A stretch of 64,000 nucleotides of DNA from Thermodesulfobacteriota bacterium (GTDB taxonomy: Bacteria; Desulfobacterota; Desulfarculia; JACQYL01), in assembly GCA_963675595.2 (NCBI GenBank), contig CAXXLZ010000002.1, positions 3,936,001-4,000,000 of the forward strand, read 5' to 3'. The notes beneath the pieces were generated by a model, which was not told where the DNA came from, searched no databases, and worked only from the letters and a program-made list of their open reading frames with translations. This document shows, piece after piece, positions 11,785-36,866 of the stretch (position 1 is its first letter; every line of letters begins with the position of its first letter). Made by a program: the position numbers and the translations under genes.

Positions 11785-14700
11785 ATGACGGACATCGCTC
11801 GTCCACAAACTCCCTATTATGACGCATCTACCCGCCATACAGTGCGGATTCTCTCGCCTGATTCCACCGAAAGCCGTGTGGAATTGGTGCGGATGGCCGG
11901 AGCTGCCGTGCCCGTTTATGTTCAGCCGGAAACGCCGCTTTGGTTCGTACCGAGCCCCTCTTTGGATCGGATGCTTCTGGACGGCTCGGACCGCCCGCCG
12001 CGGGGAGCGGAGACTCCGGACCGGGTTCTGGACCGATGGGACCTGGAGCGCATATTGACGTCCTGTCGTCGGGAACCCTACTCCGGACCTCGAGTGATGG
12101 AACTGAAGAAGCTGCGTGAGCTTTGGCTGCACGTGACCAATGCCTGCAACCTTCGTTGCGCGCATTGTCTTTTTTCCTGCGGCCCCGGTCCCGCCCCATC
12201 TCTTCCTCTCGCGCGCATGTCCTCCCTCGTTGAAGAAGCTTACGGGCTGGGTTGCAGGCTGGTGCTGTTTACCGGGGGAGAGCCCCTTTTGGTTGAAGGC
12301 CTGTCGGATTTGTTGGCAACGTCGCAGGCGCGTCCGGATCTCACCTTGGCGGTGCTCACCAACGGTCTTCTGATTCCCTCTTTGTTCCGGAAGATGCGAT
12401 TTCCGGATCCTGAACGGTTGCACTTCCAGGTGAGCCTGGATGGTTCTCGAGACTTTCATGAAGGTCTCAGGGGGAAAGGTTCCTATGATGGGGCGATTCG
12501 GGGCCTGAATCTGCTGATGGAACAGGGATTTCCCTGCAGTATCGCCATGACCGTGACATCGGACAACGTCGGTTCCATGGCTGAGGTGGTGCGCACGTCA
12601 CACGCAATCGGCGTTCGGGCGGTTCACTATCTGTGGTGTTTCCGTCGTGGCAAAGCGGAGGGCCTTGATTTTCCATCCATGGAGTCCTTGATTCGGAACT
12701 TGAGCTTGGCCGAGTCCGAAGCCCGGCGGCTCGGAGTGGTGATCGACAACATCGAGGCGATGCGCAGCCAGGTTTTCTCTCCGCCCGGCACCAGGTTCGA
12801 TTTGGGCAATGCCGGCTGGGAATCCCTTGCCGTCGGGCCGGACGGCTTTGTCTATCCCACCCCCGCCCTTGTGGGGAGAGAAGCCTTGCGAGCCGGATCG
12901 ATCGATGTCGGTCTCGAACGGATATGGAGACACAGCGAATTATTCGAACGAATCCGTCGCTTCTCTCTGTTCGATATTCCTGAAATGGCGGAGGACCCCT
13001 GGCGGTTGATCACCGGTGGAGGGGACTTGGACCACTGCCTTTCACTTGCCGCACAACCGGCCGGTTCCGAATTCAACCCGGGCCCCGATCCCTATGCCCC
13101 CCTGTATCGGGCCATGGCCCGGATGGTGATCGAAGAAGAAACGGCAGGTCTTCCCGCGCCCCCGTCGTCGGGATTGATACTTAAAATGGGCGATGTCATG
13201 CCGGAATGCCCGCCGGAGCGGGAATTGAATTTCACCCACTGCAACTGCCTGCTTTCCGTCGGAGGAAGCACCACTCACCTGGTTCGAGAATTCTATTCCG
13301 AACGCGCGGCAACCACGGACGCCTCCATCCGGAATCCGGTGCACTATTCCGATGAGGAGGCCGGATTTATTCCGGAAGAAGCTCGTTTGCGGGCCTACGG
13401 ATGCGGCAGCCCCGTGGGGGAGGCCGCCCTCGTGGAGGGCGAGACGGTGGTTGATTTGGGGTCCGGCGCAGGCGCCGAATGCTTTGTAGCCGCACGTGCC
13501 GTGGGACCCAGGGGAAGAGTGATCGGTGTGGACATGACAGCGGAGATGCTGGCCCTTGCGCGACAGACGTCGGTGAAGGTAGCCGAACGTCTGGGCTATT
13601 CGAACGTGGAATTCGTCGAGGGCTTCCTTGAGGATATTCCACTCGAATCGCGAAGTGCCGACGTGGTCGTCTCCAACTGCGTGGTCAACCTGAGCCGGAA
13701 CAAACGACGAGTGTTTCAAGAAATCTTTCGGATATTGAAGCCGGGGGGGAGAATCGTCATCTCCGATGTGGCCACCGAAACGGAGCCACCCTTGGAGGTC
13801 CGGTCGGATCACCGACTCATCGGTGAATGCATCGGCGGGGCTCAGGTTCAGGACTACCTGTTCGGCATGCTGCGGGATACGGGATTCCAAGGAGCAAGGG
13901 CGCTGAAGCGGTTCCCGTATCGTTCCGTGGGAGGCCACGATTTTCATTCTCTGACCTTTGCCGCGTCCAAACCGCCGGCGGCGTCTTCGGCGCCGATGGA
14001 CGTGGTTTACGCCGGTCCGTTTCGGGCCGTTGTCCTGGACGACGGCACCGTGCTGAACCGGGGAGTCCGCCGGACGCTGCGGGCGGCGTGGCAGGGTTCC
14101 CCGGAGGACGCGGCTCGGGCCGGGATATTCTTTCTTGATCAGGATACGGGAGCGATCACCAATGTGGACGCGGTGTGCGACTGCAACTGCGGTTTGCCTC
14201 CGGAACCGGCCGTGGAGGAGGAGACGTCGGACAGGCCCGCCACAGGCTGCCTCGAATGCGGCGCCCCGCTGGTCTATCAATCCGTGCCGGAAGATCGGGT
14301 ATGCATCCGTTGCGGCAGGGTCGCTCCCTCCGACGCGATCTGCGAGAACGGTCATTTCATCTGTGATTTCTGTCACGCCAAGGATCCCTCCGAAGTCATC
14401 GAGCGGGTGTGTCTGCTCAGCATGGAAACCGACATGCTCCGGCTGTTTGAAGAGGTCAGATCACATCGATGTTTTCCCATGCACGGACCGGAACACCATG
14501 GGCTTGTCCCGGGGGTGATTTTGTCGGCGTTTCGTAACTCGGGAGGCGATCTCACCCGGGAAGCGATCGTCGCGGGCATTCGACGCGGCGCCATGGTTCC
14601 GGGAGGCGCCTGCGCTTTCATGGGGACCTGCGGAGCCGCCACAGGTGTCGGGGTTGCGTTTTCCATGATTCTGGAGGCCACTCCCCTGACTCCGTCGAAG

Positions 14701-14976
14701 CGGCGGGATATCCAATCCCTGGTGGCGGACGTCATCAAAGCGATTGCCGAGCGCAAAGCGGCACGCTGCTGTCGGCGCGAAAGCTATATCGCCTTGAGGA
14801 TTGCGGCGGCTCGATCCAAGGAACTGCTGTCCGTCACACTCAAGGCGGAAGACGACTTCTCGTGTTCTCAGTACGCCGCCAACAGGGAATGTATCGGATC
14901 CGCCTGTCCGGTGTTTCCCAAAAGAGAAGATGTCTCGTTGAGTCCGATCAAAATCGTGAGGGCGGCGAAAGGCTGA
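11785..14976 (+). CDS. Multidomain protein: radical SAM + degenerate SPASM-like region + ArsM-type SAM methyltransferase + Zn-ribbon/DUF5714-like Cys-rich domain
   Basis: CNLRCAHC, FTGGEP, VSLDG; YGCGSP, VVDLGSGAG, SNCVVNLS, LKPGG, GECIGGA; CLEC, CIRC, CENGHFICDFCH, MHGPEHH, RCCRR, NRECIGSACP. Confidence 0.85.
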   Translation: MTDIARPQTPYYDASTRHTVRILSPDSTESRVELVRMAGAAVPVYVQPETPLWFVPSPSLDRMLLDGSDRPPRGAETPDRVLDRWDLERILTSCRREPYSGPRVMELKKLRELWLHVTNACNLRCAHCLFSCGPGPAPSLPLARMSSLVEEAYGLGCRLVLFTGGEPLLVEGLSDLLATSQARPDLTLAVLTNGLLIPSLFRKMRFPDPERLHFQVSLDGSRDFHEGLRGKGSYDGAIRGLNLLMEQGFPCSIAMTVTSDNVGSMAEVVRTSHAIGVRAVHYLWCFRRGKAEGLDFPSMESLIRNLSLAESEARRLGVVIDNIEAMRSQVFSPPGTRFDLGNAGWESLAVGPDGFVYPTPALVGREALRAGSIDVGLERIWRHSELFERIRRFSLFDIPEMAEDPWRLITGGGDLDHCLSLAAQPAGSEFNPGPDPYAPLYRAMARMVIEEETAGLPAPPSSGLILKMGDVMPECPPERELNFTHCNCLLSVGGSTTHLVREFYSERAATTDASIRNPVHYSDEEAGFIPEEARLRAYGCGSPVGEAALVEGETVVDLGSGAGAECFVAARAVGPRGRVIGVDMTAEMLALARQTSVKVAERLGYSNVEFVEGFLEDIPLESRSADVVVSNCVVNLSRNKRRVFQEIFRILKPGGRIVISDVATETEPPLEVRSDHRLIGECIGGAQVQDYLFGMLRDTGFQGARALKRFPYRSVGGHDFHSLTFAASKPPAASSAPMDVVYAGPFRAVVLDDGTVLNRGVRRTLRAAWQGSPEDAARAGIFFLDQDTGAITNVDAVCDCNCGLPPEPAVEEETSDRPATGCLECGAPLVYQSVPEDRVCIRCGRVAPSDAICENGHFICDFCHAKDPSEVIERVCLLSMETDMLRLFEEVRSHRCFPMHGPEHHGLVPGVILSAFRNSGGDLTREAIVAGIRRGAMVPGGACAFMGTCGAATGVGVAFSMILEATPLTPSKRRDIQSLVADVIKAIAERKAARCCRRESYIALRIAAARSKELLSVTLKAEDDFSCSQYAANRECIGSACPVFPKREDVSLSPIKIVRAAKG

Positions 14977-29064: not shown

Positions 29065-29254
29065 AGAGACGATCGGGAGCCTCTTTTACGTTTGAGGAGC
29101 CGGAAGAACGAACCCACACCGGAGCCTGAGGACGCGCTCTGAGGACAAGGGGGCGATGTGTTGTGCCGGGCCTCCATGACCGGCGCTTACGTTTACCGCC
29201 CACCATATGGAAACCGTTGCACCGAATTCAAACCCACCCAAAATGGGAGGAATC

Positions 29255-30040
29255 ATGAGTGATCCCGTGCTGCTGGTTGAAAAGAACGAAGGTATTGTCA
29301 CGCTCACTTTGAATCGGCCTGAAGCGATGAACGCCCTTTCCAACGAGCTCCGGTATCGGTTGACGCAAACTTTCCAGGAACTCCGCGAGGATGCTGAAAC
29401 CCGGGTCGTTATTCTTACCGGAAACGGACGCGCTTTTTGTGCAGGCCTCGATCTGAAGGAAATGGTCGCCGCCGGCGTGGTGCCTTTAGGCCCCGGGGAG
29501 CAAGAGGCGGGCCGAGATTTCAGCGCCGAAATGGACGCCTTCGATCGGCCCATTATCGGCGCCGTCAACGGAGTCGCCGTGACGGGCGGTTTCGAACTGG
29601 CTTTGGCTTGCGACTTTCTCGTGGCTTCATCAGCGGCCCGATTCGCGGACACCCACGCGCGCGTGGGGATCGTTCCGGGTTGGGGGCTCAGCCAGAGACT
29701 CTCGCGGCTCATCGGCATCGGTCGCGCCAAGGAATTATCTTTTACCGGCAACTATATCACGGCGGAACAGGCACTGAGCTGGGGATTGGTGAACCGCGTC
29801 ACCACGCCCGAGGACCTCATGCCGACTTGTCGTGCTCTGGCCGAAGACATGCTGTCCTGTGTTCCGGGCGTGGTTCGGGATTACAAGCGGTTGATCGACG
29901 AGGGATATGGGATGAGTTTCTCGAACGCCCTCGAGATGGAAAAACGTGTTTCCGTGGAATACGCGAAAAGGGTTACGGCGGAGAGTCTTGGCGCGGTGAG
30001 TCGAGGAGTACGGGAGCGAGGAAGGAAACAGACGGAATGA
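29255..30040 (+). CDS. Enoyl-CoA hydratase/isomerase family protein
   Basis: LNRPEAMNAL, AFCAGLDL, AVNG.AVTGGFELAL.CD, FADTHARVG; GGAGG RBS. Confidence 0.92.
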   Translation: MSDPVLLVEKNEGIVTLTLNRPEAMNALSNELRYRLTQTFQELREDAETRVVILTGNGRAFCAGLDLKEMVAAGVVPLGPGEQEAGRDFSAEMDAFDRPIIGAVNGVAVTGGFELALACDFLVASSAARFADTHARVGIVPGWGLSQRLSRLIGIGRAKELSFTGNYITAEQALSWGLVNRVTTPEDLMPTCRALAEDMLSCVPGVVRDYKRLIDEGYGMSFSNALEMEKRVSVEYAKRVTAESLGAVSRGVRERGRKQTE

Positions 30041-30570
30041 GCGCAAGGGGACGGGTGTGCACGCACTGCGGGATTAACTGATGGAATTAGGAACTGCTAA
30101 ATGTTAAGAGAAAAATGGAATCCCTGTGCCCGGAGCGGTGCGGAAAAGCGGAGCCGGGCGGTCGGTATGCCGAGGATGTCGACGCCCTAAGGGGAAATGC
30201 GTGTCTTAGGCTAGGGACACAGGGAAGGGTCCGCTGCTTGGTTGCTGCATACCGTAGAGCGCCGACCGGTCTCGTTGGTGCATTTCACGGAACATACGCG
30301 ACTTCTTCACCGATCCGCCGTTTCCTCGTGTCTCGGTATGCCCGAGACGGGAGGGTCGGAGTGCGGAGAAGCGGATACCCTTGGGCGGGTTTTGCCTCGC
30401 GCGGATCACCGGATTTGCCGCATGCCTCGGGGGAAGGCGCTTTTCTTTTTGGTCCCCGGTATGTTTTCGGCTTGAATTGTTTTCGGCTCGCTGTGAGCTA
30501 GAAGGTTTCGGAGGGTGACCCGAAAGGGAAACCGCACGATTCATTTCGTTCAAAGGAGGACGACGGACCC

Positions 30571-32514
30571 ATGTCGGTGGACACGAACCTCAAGATCTTG
30601 GTGGTGGAAGATTCGGGCATTACTCGCAAGATGGAGATCAAGGCCCTGAATCAACTGGGCTTCAACCGTGTCGTCGAAGCGGAAGACGGCGTCCAGGCGT
30701 CTAAGATGCTTGCCGAACAAGCGGATGTGGACCTGATCATCAGCGACTGGAACATGCCCAATATGGACGGATACGAGTTGTTGTGCCAGGTCCGGTCCAA
30801 TGAACTCACGCGGGAGGTTCCATTCATCATGGCCACCGCGAGGGGAGAGAAAAAACAGGCGGAGAAGGCGATATCCGCCGGTGTCAGCAGCTTCATCAGC
30901 AAGCCTTTCAGTCCGCCGGAACTCAAGGAGGTCATCGAGTCGGTTCTGCAATCACCCGGTGCCGCCGTAGTCGAGAAGAGCGGGATCAGGGTCCCGGAAA
31001 TGACGGATTCCGGTAAATTGCGGCTGAATATAGGACATATTCAAATTACCGACCACCTTACCCTGGGAGTCCTGCAACACCTTATTCGTTCCGAGAAGCT
31101 CGCTCCCCGGCATTTTGAGCTCGCAACCCATTGCATGCCCAGTTGGAATCCCGTCCAGAGGGCTTTGGAAAAAGGAGAACTTGACGGGGCCTTCGTGCTT
31201 GCTCCCATCGCCATGGACCTGTTCTCCTATGGAGTTCCCCTGAAACTGGTTCTTTTCGCTCATAAGAACGGCAGCATCGCGGTTCAAAAAAAGAGGGGAA
31301 AGTCCGACGGCGAAACAGATTTGAAGAGCCGGTTCGAAGGAAAGACTTTTTACATTCCTCATGAGCTTTCGATCCATCACATGCTGTCACACATGTTCTT
31401 GAAAGAAATCGGGCTCAAGCCGGGAGCCGTGGGGAGAGGCGAATTCGACGTGTTTTTCGAAGTCGTACCCCCTGTGCGCATGCCCGAATTTCTCAAGACC
31501 AATCCGGAGGCCGGGGGATATATGGTGGCGGAGCCATTGGGGACCAAAGCCATAGCTGAAGGGATCGCGGATCAGCTGTTTTTGTCGGGGCAGATGTGGA
31601 CCAATCATCCGTGCTGTGTGGTGGCGCTGAGGGAAGAAGTGCTCAAAGAACACGAGGGTGCGGTGCAGGAGTTCGTAGAGATGCTTGTGGAATCGGGGCG
31701 GTTTATTCAGCAGAAGCCCGAGGCTGCGGCGGAAATCGGGGTGGCCTTTCTCGATCCCGAAAAGACCCTCGGACTCAAGGTACCGGTGCTGAAGAACGTG
31801 CTGAAAGAGGCCCAGGGAATCAAGACACACGACTTGTTCCCCGTGGTAGACGATTTGAAGCGTATCGCCGACTACATGGGAGAAGAGATGGGCATCGGCG
31901 CACCTTTGGATTTTGGCGACTTCGTGGAGACACGGTTTGCCGAAGCGGCGTGCGGCGGCATCATGGAACGTTCGGCCTTCCGTCAGGTAGGGGACATCAT
32001 TTCGGAGCTCTCGGATCGCGGGACGGGGGATCGAACTGAAAAAAGCATGCTGGGGATTGAAGGCAACTATCTTATTTTTTCCATGGCCGATCAGGAATAC
32101 GGTGTCGGAATTCTGTCCGTCAGAGAAATTATTGGAATGATGTCCATTACTTCCATCCCGAGAGCGCCTTCATATGTCAAAGGAGTAATCAATCTCCGCG
32201 GCCGCGTTATTCCAGTGGTGGATCTTCGACTTAAGTTCGGTCTCGAGCCCGTGGAATACGATGCGCGTACGTCCATCGTGGTGCTGGATATCCGGGGTCC
32301 CAAGAGCATGTTTCAGGTGGGCATGATCGTCGACGCCGTTTCGGACGTATCCAACATTCGGGCGGAGGATACGGAAGAATCCCCTCGTTTTGGGCTGGGC
32401 GGCAACACGAGCTACATCCTGTCCATGGCCAAAATGGAAGGGGGCGTCAAGGTATTGCTGGATGTGGACGTGCTTTTCGGGGGAATGGAATCGCTCGGCG
32501 TGTCCGGCGCTTGA
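30571..32514 (+). CDS. Fusion of a CheY-like receiver, an NrtA/CmpA/NasS-like solute-binding domain and CheW
   Basis: VVEDS, ISDWNMP, SKPF; GHIQITDH, LAPIAM, VAEP, HPCCVV; GVINLRGRVIPVVDLR, GMIVDAVSDV. No signal peptide or TM segment. Confidence 0.88.
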   Translation: MSVDTNLKILVVEDSGITRKMEIKALNQLGFNRVVEAEDGVQASKMLAEQADVDLIISDWNMPNMDGYELLCQVRSNELTREVPFIMATARGEKKQAEKAISAGVSSFISKPFSPPELKEVIESVLQSPGAAVVEKSGIRVPEMTDSGKLRLNIGHIQITDHLTLGVLQHLIRSEKLAPRHFELATHCMPSWNPVQRALEKGELDGAFVLAPIAMDLFSYGVPLKLVLFAHKNGSIAVQKKRGKSDGETDLKSRFEGKTFYIPHELSIHHMLSHMFLKEIGLKPGAVGRGEFDVFFEVVPPVRMPEFLKTNPEAGGYMVAEPLGTKAIAEGIADQLFLSGQMWTNHPCCVVALREEVLKEHEGAVQEFVEMLVESGRFIQQKPEAAAEIGVAFLDPEKTLGLKVPVLKNVLKEAQGIKTHDLFPVVDDLKRIADYMGEEMGIGAPLDFGDFVETRFAEAACGGIMERSAFRQVGDIISELSDRGTGDRTEKSMLGIEGNYLIFSMADQEYGVGILSVREIIGMMSITSIPRAPSYVKGVINLRGRVIPVVDLRLKFGLEPVEYDARTSIVVLDIRGPKSMFQVGMIVDAVSDVSNIRAEDTEESPRFGLGGNTSYILSMAKMEGGVKVLLDVDVLFGGMESLGVSGA

Positions 32515-32588
32515 AGCAACCGAGACTGGGCGGGAGAGCCGGTTGGGCGCGAGCTTAAGGCCGCCGGCCGCTCCCGGAACGGCGAGGC

Positions 32589-33056
32589 TCAATTGACTTC
32601 GATGATTTCCATCTTCTGAATGCCGCCCGGAGAGCGGAATTCAACGACGTCCCCTTCTTCTTTGCCCAGCATGGCCCGCCCCAGAGGGGAGCTGAAAGAT
32701 ATGGTCCCTTCGTTGGGATCGGAATCGTAAGGCCCGAGCACCCGGTACTGCTTCTCTTCGCCCGTGGACAGGTTTTCGATGGTGACCCGGGCGCCGAAGA
32801 CTACACGATCCTTGGGAGTCGAATCAGGGTCTACGACTTCGCAAGTGGCGATTTTGTTCTTGAGTTCATTGATTCTCGCTCGCAGCAGCCCGTTGGTTTC
32901 CTGTGCTGCATGGTATTCGGCGTTTTCGGAGAGGTCTCCGTGGCCTCGAGCGGTTTCGATATCCTTAATGTTCTGAGGAAGGCGGACCTTGATAATATGA
33001 TCAAGCTCGCGACGGAGCTTTTCGCAGCCTTCGGGAGAAATAGGGATACGTTCCAT
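32589..33056 (-). CDS. greA: Transcription elongation factor GreA
   Basis: AR.HGDLSENAEYHAA, VFGA.V, ISFSSPLGRAMLGK. Confidence 0.96.
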   Translation of the reverse strand: MERIPISPEGCEKLRRELDHIIKVRLPQNIKDIETARGHGDLSENAEYHAAQETNGLLRARINELKNKIATCEVVDPDSTPKDRVVFGARVTIENLSTGEEKQYRVLGPYDSDPNEGTISFSSPLGRAMLGKEEGDVVEFRSPGGIQKMEIIEVN

Positions 33057-35072: not shown

Positions 35073-36866
35073 GTGAAATCCTTCGTCCGTCTGAGGTATT
35101 CGACCATCGAGGCAGGACAGGACGACCATTATCAGTCCCTGGCTGACATTCTGGCGTTTCGGAAGATTTATACGGTGTTTCAACCGATCTTCCATCTTCA
35201 GACGGGGGACCTTTTCAGCTACGAAGCGCTGAGCCGAGTGGAAGGTGCTTCTCCTTTCTCAGGTCCGGAACATCTGTTTCAAGTCGCCCAAAGACATCGG
35301 CTCACCCCGGAATTGGAGAAACTTTGCAGTTCCAAGGCCCTGAATCGGGCACGGCGATTGGGGATTGAAGAGCCCTTGTCCTTCAATGTGTGCCCCTCCC
35401 TCCTCAGCTCTCCAAACAGCGCAACCGAGGGCGTGTTTACCGGCATCGAGGACCTGATTGCGGTTCGGGATCGGATCATTCTGGAAATCACGGAACGCTA
35501 CTACATCGAAGACAACGAACGTTTCATTAAAGCAGTGGATTATTATCGAGATATGGGTTTCAGGATCGCCGTGGACGACCTCGGGTCCGGATTTGCCGGT
35601 CTTAAAATGCTTTCCAGGATCGAGCCGTTCATGGTCAAAATCGATCGATTCCTCATAGCGGATATTCATCGCTCCACCAAAAAGCAAATGCTGCTGGAAT
35701 CTCTCGTGTCCTTTTGTCACAAGATCAATGCGTTGGTGGTGGCGGAAGGTATTGAAACGAAAGAAGAACTGGAAGTGGTTTGCTCCATGCAAGTGGATTT
35801 GGGGCAAGGATATTTCTTGGGGCGTCCGGATCGCGAACTTCCGGACGACACTCGCTTTCAGAAAAACCTAATTTCGCAATTCGCAGGGAACACCACCACG
35901 GAGGGCATCAGCGGCAATCTCATCGGTTCTCTATCCCGGCACGTCAAGTCGCTGTCCTTACAGGACAACGTTTCAAAGGTAGTGGAACGCTTCAAGCAGG
36001 ACCAGACCCTGACCGCCATACCGGTTCTTGAAGGCCGTCGGCCGGTGGGCGTGATTCACAAAGCCAAACTGTTCTATCAGCTCGGGCAGCGGTTCGGATA
36101 TGATCTGTTCCACAAGAAGCCTCTAAAAACCATCATGAAGTCCCCGTTTGTGTTCGAGTCGGATACTCCCCTTGAAGAGGTTTCCCGAAAGATCCTCGCC
36201 CGTGATGAAACCTCTGTTTATGATGCCGTTCTTGTGGTGAGGAACGGTGTTTACCTCGGGGTGGTCAAGATTCATCATATTCTGGAACGGCTCACCGAGC
36301 AGAAGATCAATCTTGCCATCGAGGCCAATCCGCTCACCGGGCTTCCCGGAAACAATCAGATCAAGGAAGAGATTGCGCGGTGCCTTGGAATCGACCGGGT
36401 CTTTGCCGTAATGTACTTCGACTTGGACAACTTCAAGCCTTTCAACGACAACTTCGGTTTCGAGGAAGGGGACCGTGTTCTAAGGTTTCTGGGAAACTTG
36501 CTCAAAGACAGCATAACGCATTGGGATCCCCAGGGATTCGTAGGCCATGTCGGAGGAGACGATTTCGTCGCGGTGTGCAAGCCGTTCGAGGTTGAACGTA
36601 TCTGTAAAATGATCATTGAGCGATTTGATAGGGAAAGCGACCGATTTCATGATTCTTCGGCGGCAGAGTCCGGATACTACGAGAGCTGCGACCGCATGGG
36701 CAACATCCAGAGATTTCCTCTTCTATCGCTTTCCATCGGCGTGGTGGCCACAAGTCTCAGAAAATTCAATTCTTACGGACATCTTGTGTCCGTAGCCTCG
36801 GAAGTGAAAAAAAAGGCAAAAAACTTGCCCGGGAGCAGCTATTACGTCGACAAACGTCGGCTGTAA
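35073..36866 (+). CDS. EAL-CBS-GGDEF c-di-GMP signalling protein
   Basis: YEALSR, AVDDLGSG, VAEGIE, GQGY; CBS-like middle region; NPLTGLPGN, DLDNFK.FND, GHVGGDDF. Confidence 0.92.
   Translation: MKSFVRLRYSTIEAGQDDHYQSLADILAFRKIYTVFQPIFHLQTGDLFSYEALSRVEGASPFSGPEHLFQVAQRHRLTPELEKLCSSKALNRARRLGIEEPLSFNVCPSLLSSPNSATEGVFTGIEDLIAVRDRIILEITERYYIEDNERFIKAVDYYRDMGFRIAVDDLGSGFAGLKMLSRIEPFMVKIDRFLIADIHRSTKKQMLLESLVSFCHKINALVVAEGIETKEELEVVCSMQVDLGQGYFLGRPDRELPDDTRFQKNLISQFAGNTTTEGISGNLIGSLSRHVKSLSLQDNVSKVVERFKQDQTLTAIPVLEGRRPVGVIHKAKLFYQLGQRFGYDLFHKKPLKTIMKSPFVFESDTPLEEVSRKILARDETSVYDAVLVVRNGVYLGVVKIHHILERLTEQKINLAIEANPLTGLPGNNQIKEEIARCLGIDRVFAVMYFDLDNFKPFNDNFGFEEGDRVLRFLGNLLKDSITHWDPQGFVGHVGGDDFVAVCKPFEVERICKMIIERFDRESDRFHDSSAAESGYYESCDRMGNIQRFPLLSLSIGVVATSLRKFNSYGHLVSVASEVKKKAKNLPGSSYYVDKRRL

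Follow-up and report, generated by a model that had tools for sequence, protein, structure and literature searches.

Can a signal enter a chemosensory array through its coupling layer? In the textbook description, array signals come in at the receptors, and the coupling done by CheW is passive. The question is raised by a gene lying in a stretch of 64,000 nucleotides from a Thermodesulfobacteriota bacterium, which was analysed as a whole (the window, in what follows), and which joins in one polypeptide a CheY-like receiver (REC), a binding-protein domain and a CheW domain. The gene (P0001) occupies 30571..32514 on the + strand, where the frame is open over 647 aa and the opposite strand carries stops, and its three Pfam domains are all above their cut-offs, in agreement with the single receiver-binding domain-CheW ORF of the original prediction, made from the sequence alone. 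The AF2 model of the 647-aa protein has a mean pLDDT of 86.4 and a pTM of 0.75. A Shine-Dalgarno sequence can be read upstream (AAGGAGGA, 30553..30560, + strand), with the ATG 10 nt further on and, since the N-terminus is the receiver itself, the product has no signal peptide, as had been predicted.

The gene, its surroundings and its distribution

The lack of any MCP, CheA or ABC permease close to the gene, which was part of the same prediction, is borne out for the interval 11785-47987, where the 21 ORFs that were scanned include no chemotaxis or ABC-transport protein and none of the usual partners of NrtA or NasS (i.e., an ABC permease/ATPase or NasT). None of the 32 MCP-domain matches of the genome falls within the window, the nearest being ~188 kb and ~274 kb away, and the only CheW-domain match within the window is the fusion gene. 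On its 5' side there is a gap of 530 nt with a terminator-like hairpin (30423-30439) and a T-run (together 30423..30449, + strand), detected by consensus scan and sequence reading, which is weak evidence by itself because 7 such sites were found in the region against 5.4 expected, and which is probably the end of the transcript of the upstream enoyl-CoA hydratase (ECH) gene. On the other side, the downstream neighbour, greA, is convergent. With this gap, its hairpin and greA, the monocistronic arrangement first proposed can be retained as plausible. Regarding other elements, no Rfam family matched between 29900 and 30700, no sigma-70-like promoter was found by consensus scan of the region, and sigma-54 and sigma-28 consensus sequences are absent from 30041-30570. 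A pseudogene remnant of an MCP was searched for in the gap by tblastn, because one ortholog shows the order ECH-MCP-fusion, and none was found; a 128-aa ORF at 30115-30501, without any Pfam family, was taken as non-coding.

Is the fusion genuine, or could it be an artefact of assembly or annotation, or even a decaying gene fusion devoid of function? Both domain junctions are spanned, without indels, by contigs from three studies (runs X1, X3 and X5), which show 0, 6 and 32 substitutions, respectively (X1 may be the source sample of the window itself). Furthermore, a database search gave 1675 matches at E<=1e-3 among 8000 candidates scored, and REC+NMT1_2+CheW is common to 119 of the 120 best matches listed (53-67% identity), which come from independent assemblies. 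Their source names comprise Deltaproteobacteria/Desulfobacterota, Nitrospirota, Anaerolineae, Latescibacteria, KSB1 and Gammaproteobacteria, including the cultured Thermodesulforhabdus norvegica and Desulfacinum species, and an Ignavibacteria MAG is a further carrier. The architecture is therefore genuine and spread over several phyla: the contigs and the 119 matches rule out an assembly artefact and, the functional residues being all conserved and the AF2 model confident, the probability left to artefact or decay is negligible. Orthologs were taken from a separate genome search, because in the search for related loci in genome contigs most matches reflected DWNMPNMD, a generic CheY motif, and just a few of the 80 loci were true orthologs, and a quick tree resolved poorly inside the REC-linked clade. 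A literature search found no study describing the REC-sensor-CheW architecture, in line with the earlier statement that no characterised protein of this kind was known.

Receiver, CheW domain and array context

The receiver (residues 9-122; 30595..30936, + strand) is recognised by Pfam (Response_reg, 91 bits against a cut-off of 30.2, 6.5e-26), by the CheY model of NCBIfam (6.9e-27, under its equivalog cut-off) and by Foldseek, which matches it to CheY (1d4z) with a TM of 0.93 and 41% identity. It contains the acidic pair E13/D14, the phospho-acceptor D59, T89, K111 and, at the aromatic switch position, F108. Across 50 orthologs D14, D59, T89, K111 and P112 are invariant and E13 is kept in at least 90%, so that the phosphorylation residues initially pointed out (ED, D, T, KP) are all present and maintained; the receiver is CheY-like, with the motif DWNMPNMDG, and looks phosphorylatable. 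A variable linker follows (residues 123-150; 30937..31020, + strand), with pLDDT below 50 at 130-134 and one invariant column out of 28.

At the opposite end, the CheW domain (residues 498-636; 32062..32478, + strand) reaches 113 bits in Pfam against a cut-off of 23.5 (PF01584 at 500-636, 1.1e-32), is matched by Foldseek to the E. coli CheW of the core signalling unit (8c5v_E; TM 0.89, 36% identity), and shares 57% identity with a stand-alone CheW of the same genome. R543, within an NLRG motif, is the equivalent of E. coli CheW R62. According to the residue list in PMC13098124, nine of the 12 residues contacting the receptor tip and CheA-P5 (interface 1) are identical to those of E. coli CheW (V36, E38, G41, G57, R62, T86, G99, V105 and V108, in E. 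coli numbering), the substitutions being V87 to S, V88 to I (conservative) and G133 to S; the mapping went through a 167-aa Kluyvera CheW, whose numbering was assumed, from matching residues, to equal that of E. coli. Interface 2 differs from E. coli CheW (R117 to E and E121 to R), and the same positions are likewise non-E. coli in the stand-alone CheWs of this genome. A complex prediction for the CheW domain and P5 of the 762-aa CheA of the genome scored 0.14, the mark being 0.34, and counts neither towards binding nor against it. Leaving aside the ~500 extra N-terminal residues of the fusion, which a stand-alone CheW does not have, the comparative evidence from sequence supports a bona fide CheW at the C-terminus, and the full domain of the original prediction is thereby upheld.

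Do the carriers of the fusion have an array in which it could act? The CheA dimerisation domain and MCPs are present in all 23 carrier genomes examined (17 of 17 genera), although this co-occurrence is a weak indication, because 72% of the phylum sample has CheA anyway (288 of 401 genomes; 190 of 255 genera) and related genomes are not independent. One genome has a 727-aa paralog inside the operon CheW-MCP-MCP-MCP-(REC-sensor-CheW)-MCP-CheR-CheB-CheA, with gaps of 22 and 30 nt. At the 23 ortholog loci, an MCP, CheY-like, CheX or CheW-like gene lies within two genes of the fusion in six cases, and so does a PAS-type histidine kinase in six, which makes a phosphodonor other than CheA possible. 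No signalling neighbour was seen at 14 of the 23, as judged by a crude ORF calling that mis-called the strand of at least one neighbour, and no operon partner is conserved across them. Among the 92 neighbours of these orthologs, the partners of NrtA and NasS are likewise absent, with ABC ATPases at three loci and no NitT/TauT-type permease.

CheV is the only characterised protein known to combine CheW with a receiver, likewise phosphorylatable and CheY-like, in one polypeptide. By analogy with it, the fusion would presumably be located in arrays, with CheA as its phosphodonor. However, CheV (from Bacillus, Salmonella or Helicobacter) has the order CheW-REC and no sensor, whereas the fusion has the receiver first, CheW last and a sensor of 315 residues between them, and thus falls outside a class composed of an N-terminal CheW, a C-terminal receiver and nothing else. 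Could it nonetheless work as CheV does, in adaptation or as a phosphate sink, mainly draining phosphoryl groups from CheA and stabilising particular receptors, with the middle domain serving only as bulk or for localisation? The kinship of the receiver to CheY and the precedent of CheV itself would agree with it, as would the CheX phosphatase gene after the fusion gene at two loci (L135 and L136). Nevertheless, the domain order is the opposite of that of CheV and, by the count of invariant columns (57 of 315 in the sensor, 19 of 114 in the receiver and 9 of 139 in CheW, with the linkers free), no part of the protein is as constrained as the sensor, which is unexpected of a spacer, and this alternative is considered rather improbable.

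The middle domain and other outputs of the REC-sensor pair

Residues 151-465 (31021..31965, + strand) form a cytoplasmic domain of the type-II binding-protein (Venus-flytrap) class with the NMT1_2/NrtA fold, as indicated by Pfam (NMT1_2 at 151-389, 100.5 bits against a cut-off of 24.7, 1.8e-28), by the SsuA_fam model (residues 176-457) and by Foldseek matches that include 2g29 (E 5e-16) and 9uai. A second variable linker (residues 466-497; 31966..32061, + strand), with two short helices and no invariant column out of 32, leads from it to CheW. The domain had been described as an NrtA/NasS-like sensor, and this holds for the fold and fails for the nearest solved relative: its best match, both in sequence (E 7.7e-18) and in fold (E 3.7e-20, TM 0.88), is 3UN6, an ABC-import binding protein from S. 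aureus described as "with zinc bound", while similarity to NrtA at the sequence level is weak (E 3.8e-5 across 115 residues). Both by sequence and by fold, the top matches include the regulatory domains of CmpC/NrtC, which are cytoplasmic and of the NrtA fold (9uai, 9uak and 8wm7). NasS (acting with NasT) and the C-terminal domains of NrtC/CmpC have the same fold and are intracellular small-anion sensors regulating a partner, with NasS letting go of NasT upon binding nitrate or nitrite, according to PMC3795266. Their similarity to the fusion sensor is, however, weak (E ~1e-5 to 1e-6), they lack the Cys-Cys motif (HPGK stands opposite HPCC), and what they control is an ANTAR antiterminator or an ABC transporter, whereas the output of the fusion would be the chemosensory array. 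Judging from sequence and model, the sensor has closer ties with the zinc-bound 3UN6 class than with NrtA or NasS and, therefore, "nitrate/bicarbonate/sulfonate-binding" is a label for the fold and not the assignment of a ligand. A search of the ESM Atlas with the domain returned only generic clusters of "ABC transporter substrate-binding protein".

The residues that are invariant in 50 orthologs are H156-IQITD-H162, W192-N193, H231, P263-H264, S267, H269, E297, E321-P322, W343 and H346-P347-C348-C349 (HPCC), with H270 and C188 kept in 92%, and they are located at strand ends and helix starts (DSSP of the AF2 model). The His-rich nature that had been noticed is thus reinforced by six invariant His (H156, H162, H231, H264, H269 and H346) together with C348 and C349. 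The Cys-Cys motif, whose strand comes next after W..HP, and the lobe-2 motif IPH..S.H align residue for residue with 3UN6, and HPCC is also present in stand-alone and secreted paralogs of the sensor. Related to 3UN6 are the binding proteins of clade-B CODH operons, and PMC13592312 reports the model of a relative in which two Cys and one or two His bind a metal. On the basis of that AlphaFold 3 model from another group and of the motif alignment to 3UN6, the sensor domain probably contains a metal. Between the two intracellular ligands first envisaged, an anion or a metal-anion, the His and Cys-Cys motifs shared with 3UN6 make the latter the better fit. There are also differences: H156, H162 and H231 are extra invariant His with respect to 3UN6 and the CODH-linked proteins, and these are extracytoplasmic transporter components, whereas the fusion sensor is cytoplasmic and lies inside a signalling protein. 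That the fusion could itself be a transporter component is ruled out by the lack of signal peptide and permease and by its N-terminal receiver.

The receiver and the sensor are also found together with other outputs. A scan of 50 sensor relatives showed the REC-sensor pair in front of CheW (5), the P3-P4-P5 core of CheA (3), SpoIIE-type PP2C (6), an RsbW-like kinase plus STAS (4), NIR_SIR (1) and TPR (1). Being fused to CheA cores, PP2C and RsbW/STAS, the pair is a reusable input module, and its union with so many different signalling outputs supports, on comparative grounds, the middle domain as a cytoplasmic sensor-type module. Remoter sensors are joined to GAF and, within the clade and without receiver, to ABC permeases, ECF sigma factors and the signalling domains of MCPs. 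Output-less REC-sensor proteins (458-488 aa) occur as well, so the pair may act via binding partners and not through a fused domain; some of them (L018, L017) adjoin a copy of the sensor domain that is cytoplasmic and stands alone.

Does the middle domain, then, bind a protein instead of a ligand? The fusion would in that case be a response regulator with the receiver as sole input and a PAS histidine kinase or CheA as phosphodonor, whose middle domain senses no free ligand and transmits, dimerises or sequesters a partner, the metal being structural and CheW only tethering the protein to an array or titrating CheA and receptors. The output-less proteins and their sensor-copy neighbours would be coherent with it, as would the position of the receiver, always immediately N-terminal to the sensor whatever the output, the histidine kinases near the fusion and the precedent of NasS-NasT, a binding protein and a receiver-containing partner (PMC3795266). 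Nonetheless, the six His, the Cys-Cys, a Ser, Thr/Asp, Trp/Asn and two Glu are invariant at the cleft-lining positions of this fold, which fits a small molecule or a metal better, and receiver-less sensors on MCP domains, ECF sigma factors and ABC permeases are typical of ligand sensors, so this reading is deemed unlikely.

A proposed array adaptor and its meaning

The reading that we favour, and hold to be fairly probable, is that the fusion is a ligand-gated, phospho-regulated array adaptor, with the ligand, the binding to the array and the direction of the signal as its conjectural parts. By homology, its CheW domain would occupy a CheW position in the chemoreceptor array, touching CheA-P5 and the receptor tips, and its Venus-flytrap domain would hold a metal at a Cys-Cys/His site resembling that of zinc-bound 3UN6. 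A small cytoplasmic ligand would bind in the inter-lobe cleft, the candidates being small anions or metal-coordinating species (e.g., bicarbonate/CO2, nitrite, sulfite or sulfide), and closure of the flytrap might be relayed by the short linker to the CheW domain, altering receptor-kinase coupling. The receiver, in turn, would be phosphorylated by CheA or a PAS histidine kinase, and would set or reset the sensor-adaptor, in a feedback similar to that of CheV. A broader and more tentative version, possible but less than probable, is that the REC-sensor pair constitutes a widespread input module not described before, which would be a metallo-sensor of the cytoplasm. Here it would be a receptor-independent input through the array baseplate, in which a metabolite at the Cys2-His centre (CO2/bicarbonate, sulfite/nitrite or sulfide, as candidates) changes CheW coupling and the metabolic state inside the cell guides its movement, and elsewhere it would drive P1-less CheA cores and partner-switching cascades.

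Since several carriers are cultured (Thermodesulforhabdus norvegica and Desulfacinum species), the hypothesis is directly testable. Receiver and sensor emerge from the work as one compact module, which recurs with outputs of the chemotaxis, PP2C and anti-sigma types, and the binding-protein class of 3UN6 and the clade-B CODH operons, whose ligand is an open question according to PMC13592312, acquires a signalling context. If the proposal is true, the coupling layer itself would be a signal input, by means of a conserved CheW with its own ligand-binding domain and receiver. The fusion may thus let the internal chemistry of the cell act directly on the chemotaxis machinery, which bears on the energy or metabolic taxis of anaerobes, many of them, by their source names, sulfate reducers.

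The fusion gene and its surroundings

The gene encoding the receiver–sensor–CheW fusion is one open frame of 647 codons at window 30571-32514 (+), with the opposite strand closed, and its ATG is preceded by what reads in the sequence as a strong Shine-Dalgarno element, AAGGAGGA (30553-30560, +). Pfam assigns Response_reg (residues 9-122), NMT1_2 (151-389) and CheW (500-636), all far above the curated cut-offs. NCBIfam ranks highest the models for E. coli CheW and CheY, neither of which reaches its equivalog cut-off, and that for the SsuA family (residues 176-457). The AlphaFold2 model, with 50 orthologs as input, has a mean pLDDT of 86.4 and a pTM of 0.75, and its confidence falls only in both linkers and one CheW loop. 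Read support across the domain junctions, a check named with the original prediction, was obtained from the Logan contigs of three runs, each belonging to a different study, all bridging both junctions: that of X1 (30738-32600; this run may be the window's own source sample) with 0 differences, that of X3 (30400-32229) with 6 and that of X5 (the whole stretch) with 32, and no insertions or deletions were seen in them. The chance that the fusion is an assembly artefact is practically negligible.

The original prediction also pictured an orphan, probably monocistronic gene, and this picture holds. None of the 21 ORFs scanned at window 11785-47987 encodes an MCP, a CheA, an ABC permease or an ANTAR protein; they include RecC, RecB, RecD, AroD/AroE and sugar and polysaccharide genes. 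An enoyl-CoA hydratase gene lies directly upstream and a convergent GreA gene downstream. The 530-nt upstream gap holds a terminator-like hairpin (30423-30439) and a 128-aa ORF without family match, and gave no Rfam match. In the 6.79-Mb genome (3 contigs) there are 32 matches to the MCP signalling domain, 0 of them inside the window, two to the CheA dimerisation domain and 11 to the CheW domain, of which the fusion gene is the only one inside the window. The genome's second CheA (G000:C2:1309520-1311289) lies within a frame of 1106 aa in which the CheW domain is matched at three separate places.

Other features of the surroundings can be recorded. Three distant genomes have an enoyl-CoA hydratase gene close to the fusion gene (window 29207-30040, L125:4307-5128 and L130:1737-2645; cluster c3); in L125 an MCP stands between the two, and a search of the window's upstream gap for a remnant of an MCP found none. 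Another cytoplasmic signalling protein, of EAL-CBS-GGDEF architecture, is encoded 2.5 kb downstream (35073-36866, +), and at 11785-14976 (+) a radical-SAM domain is joined to a class-I SAM methyltransferase and DUF5714 in one 1063-aa ORF.

Conservation and relatives of the three domains

The receiver closely resembles CheY (Foldseek TM 0.93, 41% identity). Across 50 sequences D14, D59, T89, K111 and P112 never vary and E13 is kept in at least 90%, and F108 occupies the aromatic switch position of CheY Y106. The strongest conservation in the protein is found in the sensor, its middle domain, with 57/315 invariant columns, against 19/114 in the receiver, 9/139 in the CheW domain and essentially none in the linkers. 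The invariant sensor residues comprise H156-I-Q-I-T-D-H162, W192-N193, H231, P263-H264, S267 and H269, together with E297, E321-P322, W343 and H346-P347-C348-C349; H270 and C188 are 92% conserved. In the secondary structure of the model, the invariant residues fall at C-terminal strand ends and first helix turns, elements that line the inter-lobe cleft in type-II binding proteins, and they would thus be predicted to line that cleft here.

The nearest solved relative, both by sequence (E 7.7e-18) and by fold (E 3.7e-20, TM 0.88), is 3UN6, whose entry title reads 'with zinc bound' and which matches the 'IPH..S.H' and 'CC' motifs of the sensor residue for residue. By sequence, cyanobacterial CmpC/NrtC follow with their cytoplasmic C-terminal regulatory domains (about 1e-5 to 1e-6), which have HPGK opposite the sensor's HPCC in the alignment, and then NrtA (3.8e-5); by fold, the CmpC regulatory domain, NrtA, and then TauA, SsuA, Thi5 and ThiY-type proteins. 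Among papers citing 3UN6, one ties homologous NitT/TauT binding proteins to clade-B Ni-CODH operons (PMC6344411); another describes 3UN6 as a zinc-binding protein without known function and reports an AlphaFold 3 model of a CODH-linked relative in which two Cys together with one or two His hold a metal, in a site resembling those of beta-carbonic anhydrases (PMC13592312). From the likeness to 3UN6 and this reported metal-site model, the sensor is assigned to a 'metal-site' branch, of Cys-Cys/His type, within the NrtA/SsuA fold. HPCC is also kept in cytoplasmic stand-alone paralogs (307-313 aa, starting at the first strand and without signal peptide), in REC-sensor proteins of 458-486 aa and, in the same genome, in a weak secreted paralog that is followed by an ABC permease. 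At L018:7983-10355 and in L017, a REC-sensor protein of 458 aa is directly preceded by a cytoplasmic stand-alone sensor paralog of 313 aa without signal peptide; the L018 pair has an RR-HD-GYP protein and a PAS hybrid kinase in its vicinity.

Two stand-alone CheWs of the same genome share 57% and 55% identity with the CheW domain, which superposes on the E. coli CheW of the core signalling unit (Foldseek TM 0.89, 36% identity). Contacts were mapped by alignment to a Kluyvera CheW of 167 aa, which agrees in its residues with the E. coli numbering of a 2026 review (PMC13098124). On this mapping V36, E38, G41, G57, R62 (the invariant R543), T86, G99, V105 and V108 are identical to E. coli CheW, and V88, V87 and G133 are replaced by I, S and S, respectively. 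At interface 2, R117 is changed to E and E121 to R, and F122 is kept; these positions also vary in the genome's own stand-alone CheWs.

Distribution and reuse of the receiver–sensor pair

Searching a 90%-clustered protein collection gave 1675 matches at E<=1e-3 among 8000 scored candidates, and 119 of the best 120 listed contain all three Pfam domains, matching 97-100% of the query length at 53-67% identity; only P0002 departs from this, as a tandem (REC-sensor)x2. Source names include Deltaproteobacteria/Desulfobacteraceae/Syntrophobacterales, Thermodesulforhabdus norvegica, Desulfacinum, Desulfosoma, Nitrospirae, Anaerolineae/Chloroflexi, Latescibacteria, KSB1 and Gammaproteobacteria, and Desulfarculia and Ignavibacteria MAGs are likewise carriers. 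Within the window's phylum the distribution is patchy, since matches at E<=1e-60 occur in only 23/401 genomes and 17/255 genera of an even sample.

An exhaustive HMMER search of 1.84 billion representatives with the sensor domain yielded no more than 662 clusters at E<=1e-3, of which 286 reach E<=1e-10 and 91 reach E<=1e-30. A Pfam scan of 50 among 150 listed relatives, picked for being longer than a stand-alone domain, found the receiver directly before the sensor and followed by CheW (P0124, P0133, P0146, P0150, P0152), by a CheA-like core of H-kinase_dim, HATPase_c and CheW (P0128, P0131, P0134), by a SpoIIE-type PP2C (P0122, P0123, P0126, P0132, P0138, P0139), by RsbW-like HATPase_c_2 plus STAS (P0140, P0144, P0145, P0153), by TPR (P0154), by NIR_SIR (P0136) or by nothing (P0129, P0151, P0158, P0162). 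In P0136 (894 aa, a single cluster) the pair is joined to nitrite/sulfite-reductase ferredoxin-like and 4Fe-4S/siroheme domains, in P0141 a histidine kinase precedes the pair, and P0157 is a sensor-CheW without receiver. The CheA-like proteins, of which P0131 has a second receiver, show no Hpt (P1) at E<=1e-5 and may be CheA variants with the sensor module replacing the N-terminal phosphotransfer domains. More distant sensor members sit at the C-terminus of an MCP signalling domain (P0259) and of ECF-type sigma factors (P0230, P0241, P0264), or are fused to GAF (P0212) and ABC permeases (P0184, P0207). In a quick ML tree of 40 sensor domains, the REC-linked sensors form one clade (SH-aLRT 96), apart from five stand-alone ones. 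Output types interleave within this clade, at poor resolution, and the CheW fusion may have arisen only once. Judged from these architectures, the REC-sensor pair is a reusable input module.

Link to chemosensory arrays and proposed mode of action

The CheA-specific dimerisation domain was detected in 23/23 carrier genomes (17 genera; two carriers hold only a partial or CheW-less form), each with 6-38 MCP matches, against a background of 288/401 genomes and 190/255 genera in the same sample. This co-occurrence weakly supports a tie to CheA and MCPs, since related genomes are not independent. No conserved gene neighbourhood surrounds the fusion gene among 23 loci. In a census of 92 neighbours, two per side, made with crude longest-ORF calling (at least one strand mis-called), 6/23 loci have a chemotaxis-family neighbour: an MCP directly upstream (L125), a single-domain CheY-like gene directly upstream (L127, L128), CheX directly downstream and then a stand-alone cytoplasmic sensor paralog (L135, L136), or a CheW-like gene (L014). 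A histidine kinase neighbours 6/23 (L120, L123, L129, L135, L136, L014), and 14/23 have neither by these crude calls. The clearest case is G278, a carrier genome with a second, 727-aa REC-sensor-CheW paralog in the operon CheW-MCP-MCP-MCP-[paralog]-MCP-CheR-CheB-CheA. At L015:7060-15555, the REC-sensor-TPR relative is flanked by genes for a ParA/MinD-like ATPase and an Hsp70-like protein; beyond these come an MCP that has two signalling stretches and a protein in which four CheW domains are combined with CZB (a zinc-binding domain). This looks like a cytoplasmic chemoreceptor-array cluster and resembles the components reported for such arrays in Vibrio cholerae.

Among known systems, the fusion is most like CheV (CheW plus receiver) joined to a cytoplasmic flytrap sensor of the NasS or NrtC regulatory-domain type; unlike CheV, its order is reversed and a domain is inserted, so it is not a CheV. 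That it works as a CheV-like phosphate sink seems very unlikely, and we consider it unlikely that it is a response regulator with a middle domain made for binding proteins and not a ligand. The original prediction knew of no characterised protein of this architecture, and full-text searching of the non-subscription literature found no paper on one; two preprints sorting CheW-like domains by architecture exclude those with <40 sequences and, in their available portions, leave NMT1 unmentioned.

The best-supported reading, which we hold to be probable, is a sensor-bearing, phospho-regulated CheW, and behind it stand domain identity, conserved residues, breadth, CheA/MCP co-occurrence, an occasional che operon and modular reuse. 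We infer array binding, ligand binding, the ligand and the direction of control. The CheW domain would dock in the array, the metal-site flytrap would take up a cytoplasmic small molecule and thereby alter array coupling, and the receiver, phosphorylated by CheA or a PAS kinase, would modulate the same switch. Nitrate, nitrite, bicarbonate, sulfonates and taurine are the ligands of characterised members of the sensor's fold. As leads only, bicarbonate/CO2, nitrite/sulfite or sulfide are suggested by the Cys2-His-type site and by the one fusion to NIR_SIR. The fusion protein is of real interest to the chemotaxis field and can be tested in cultured carriers.
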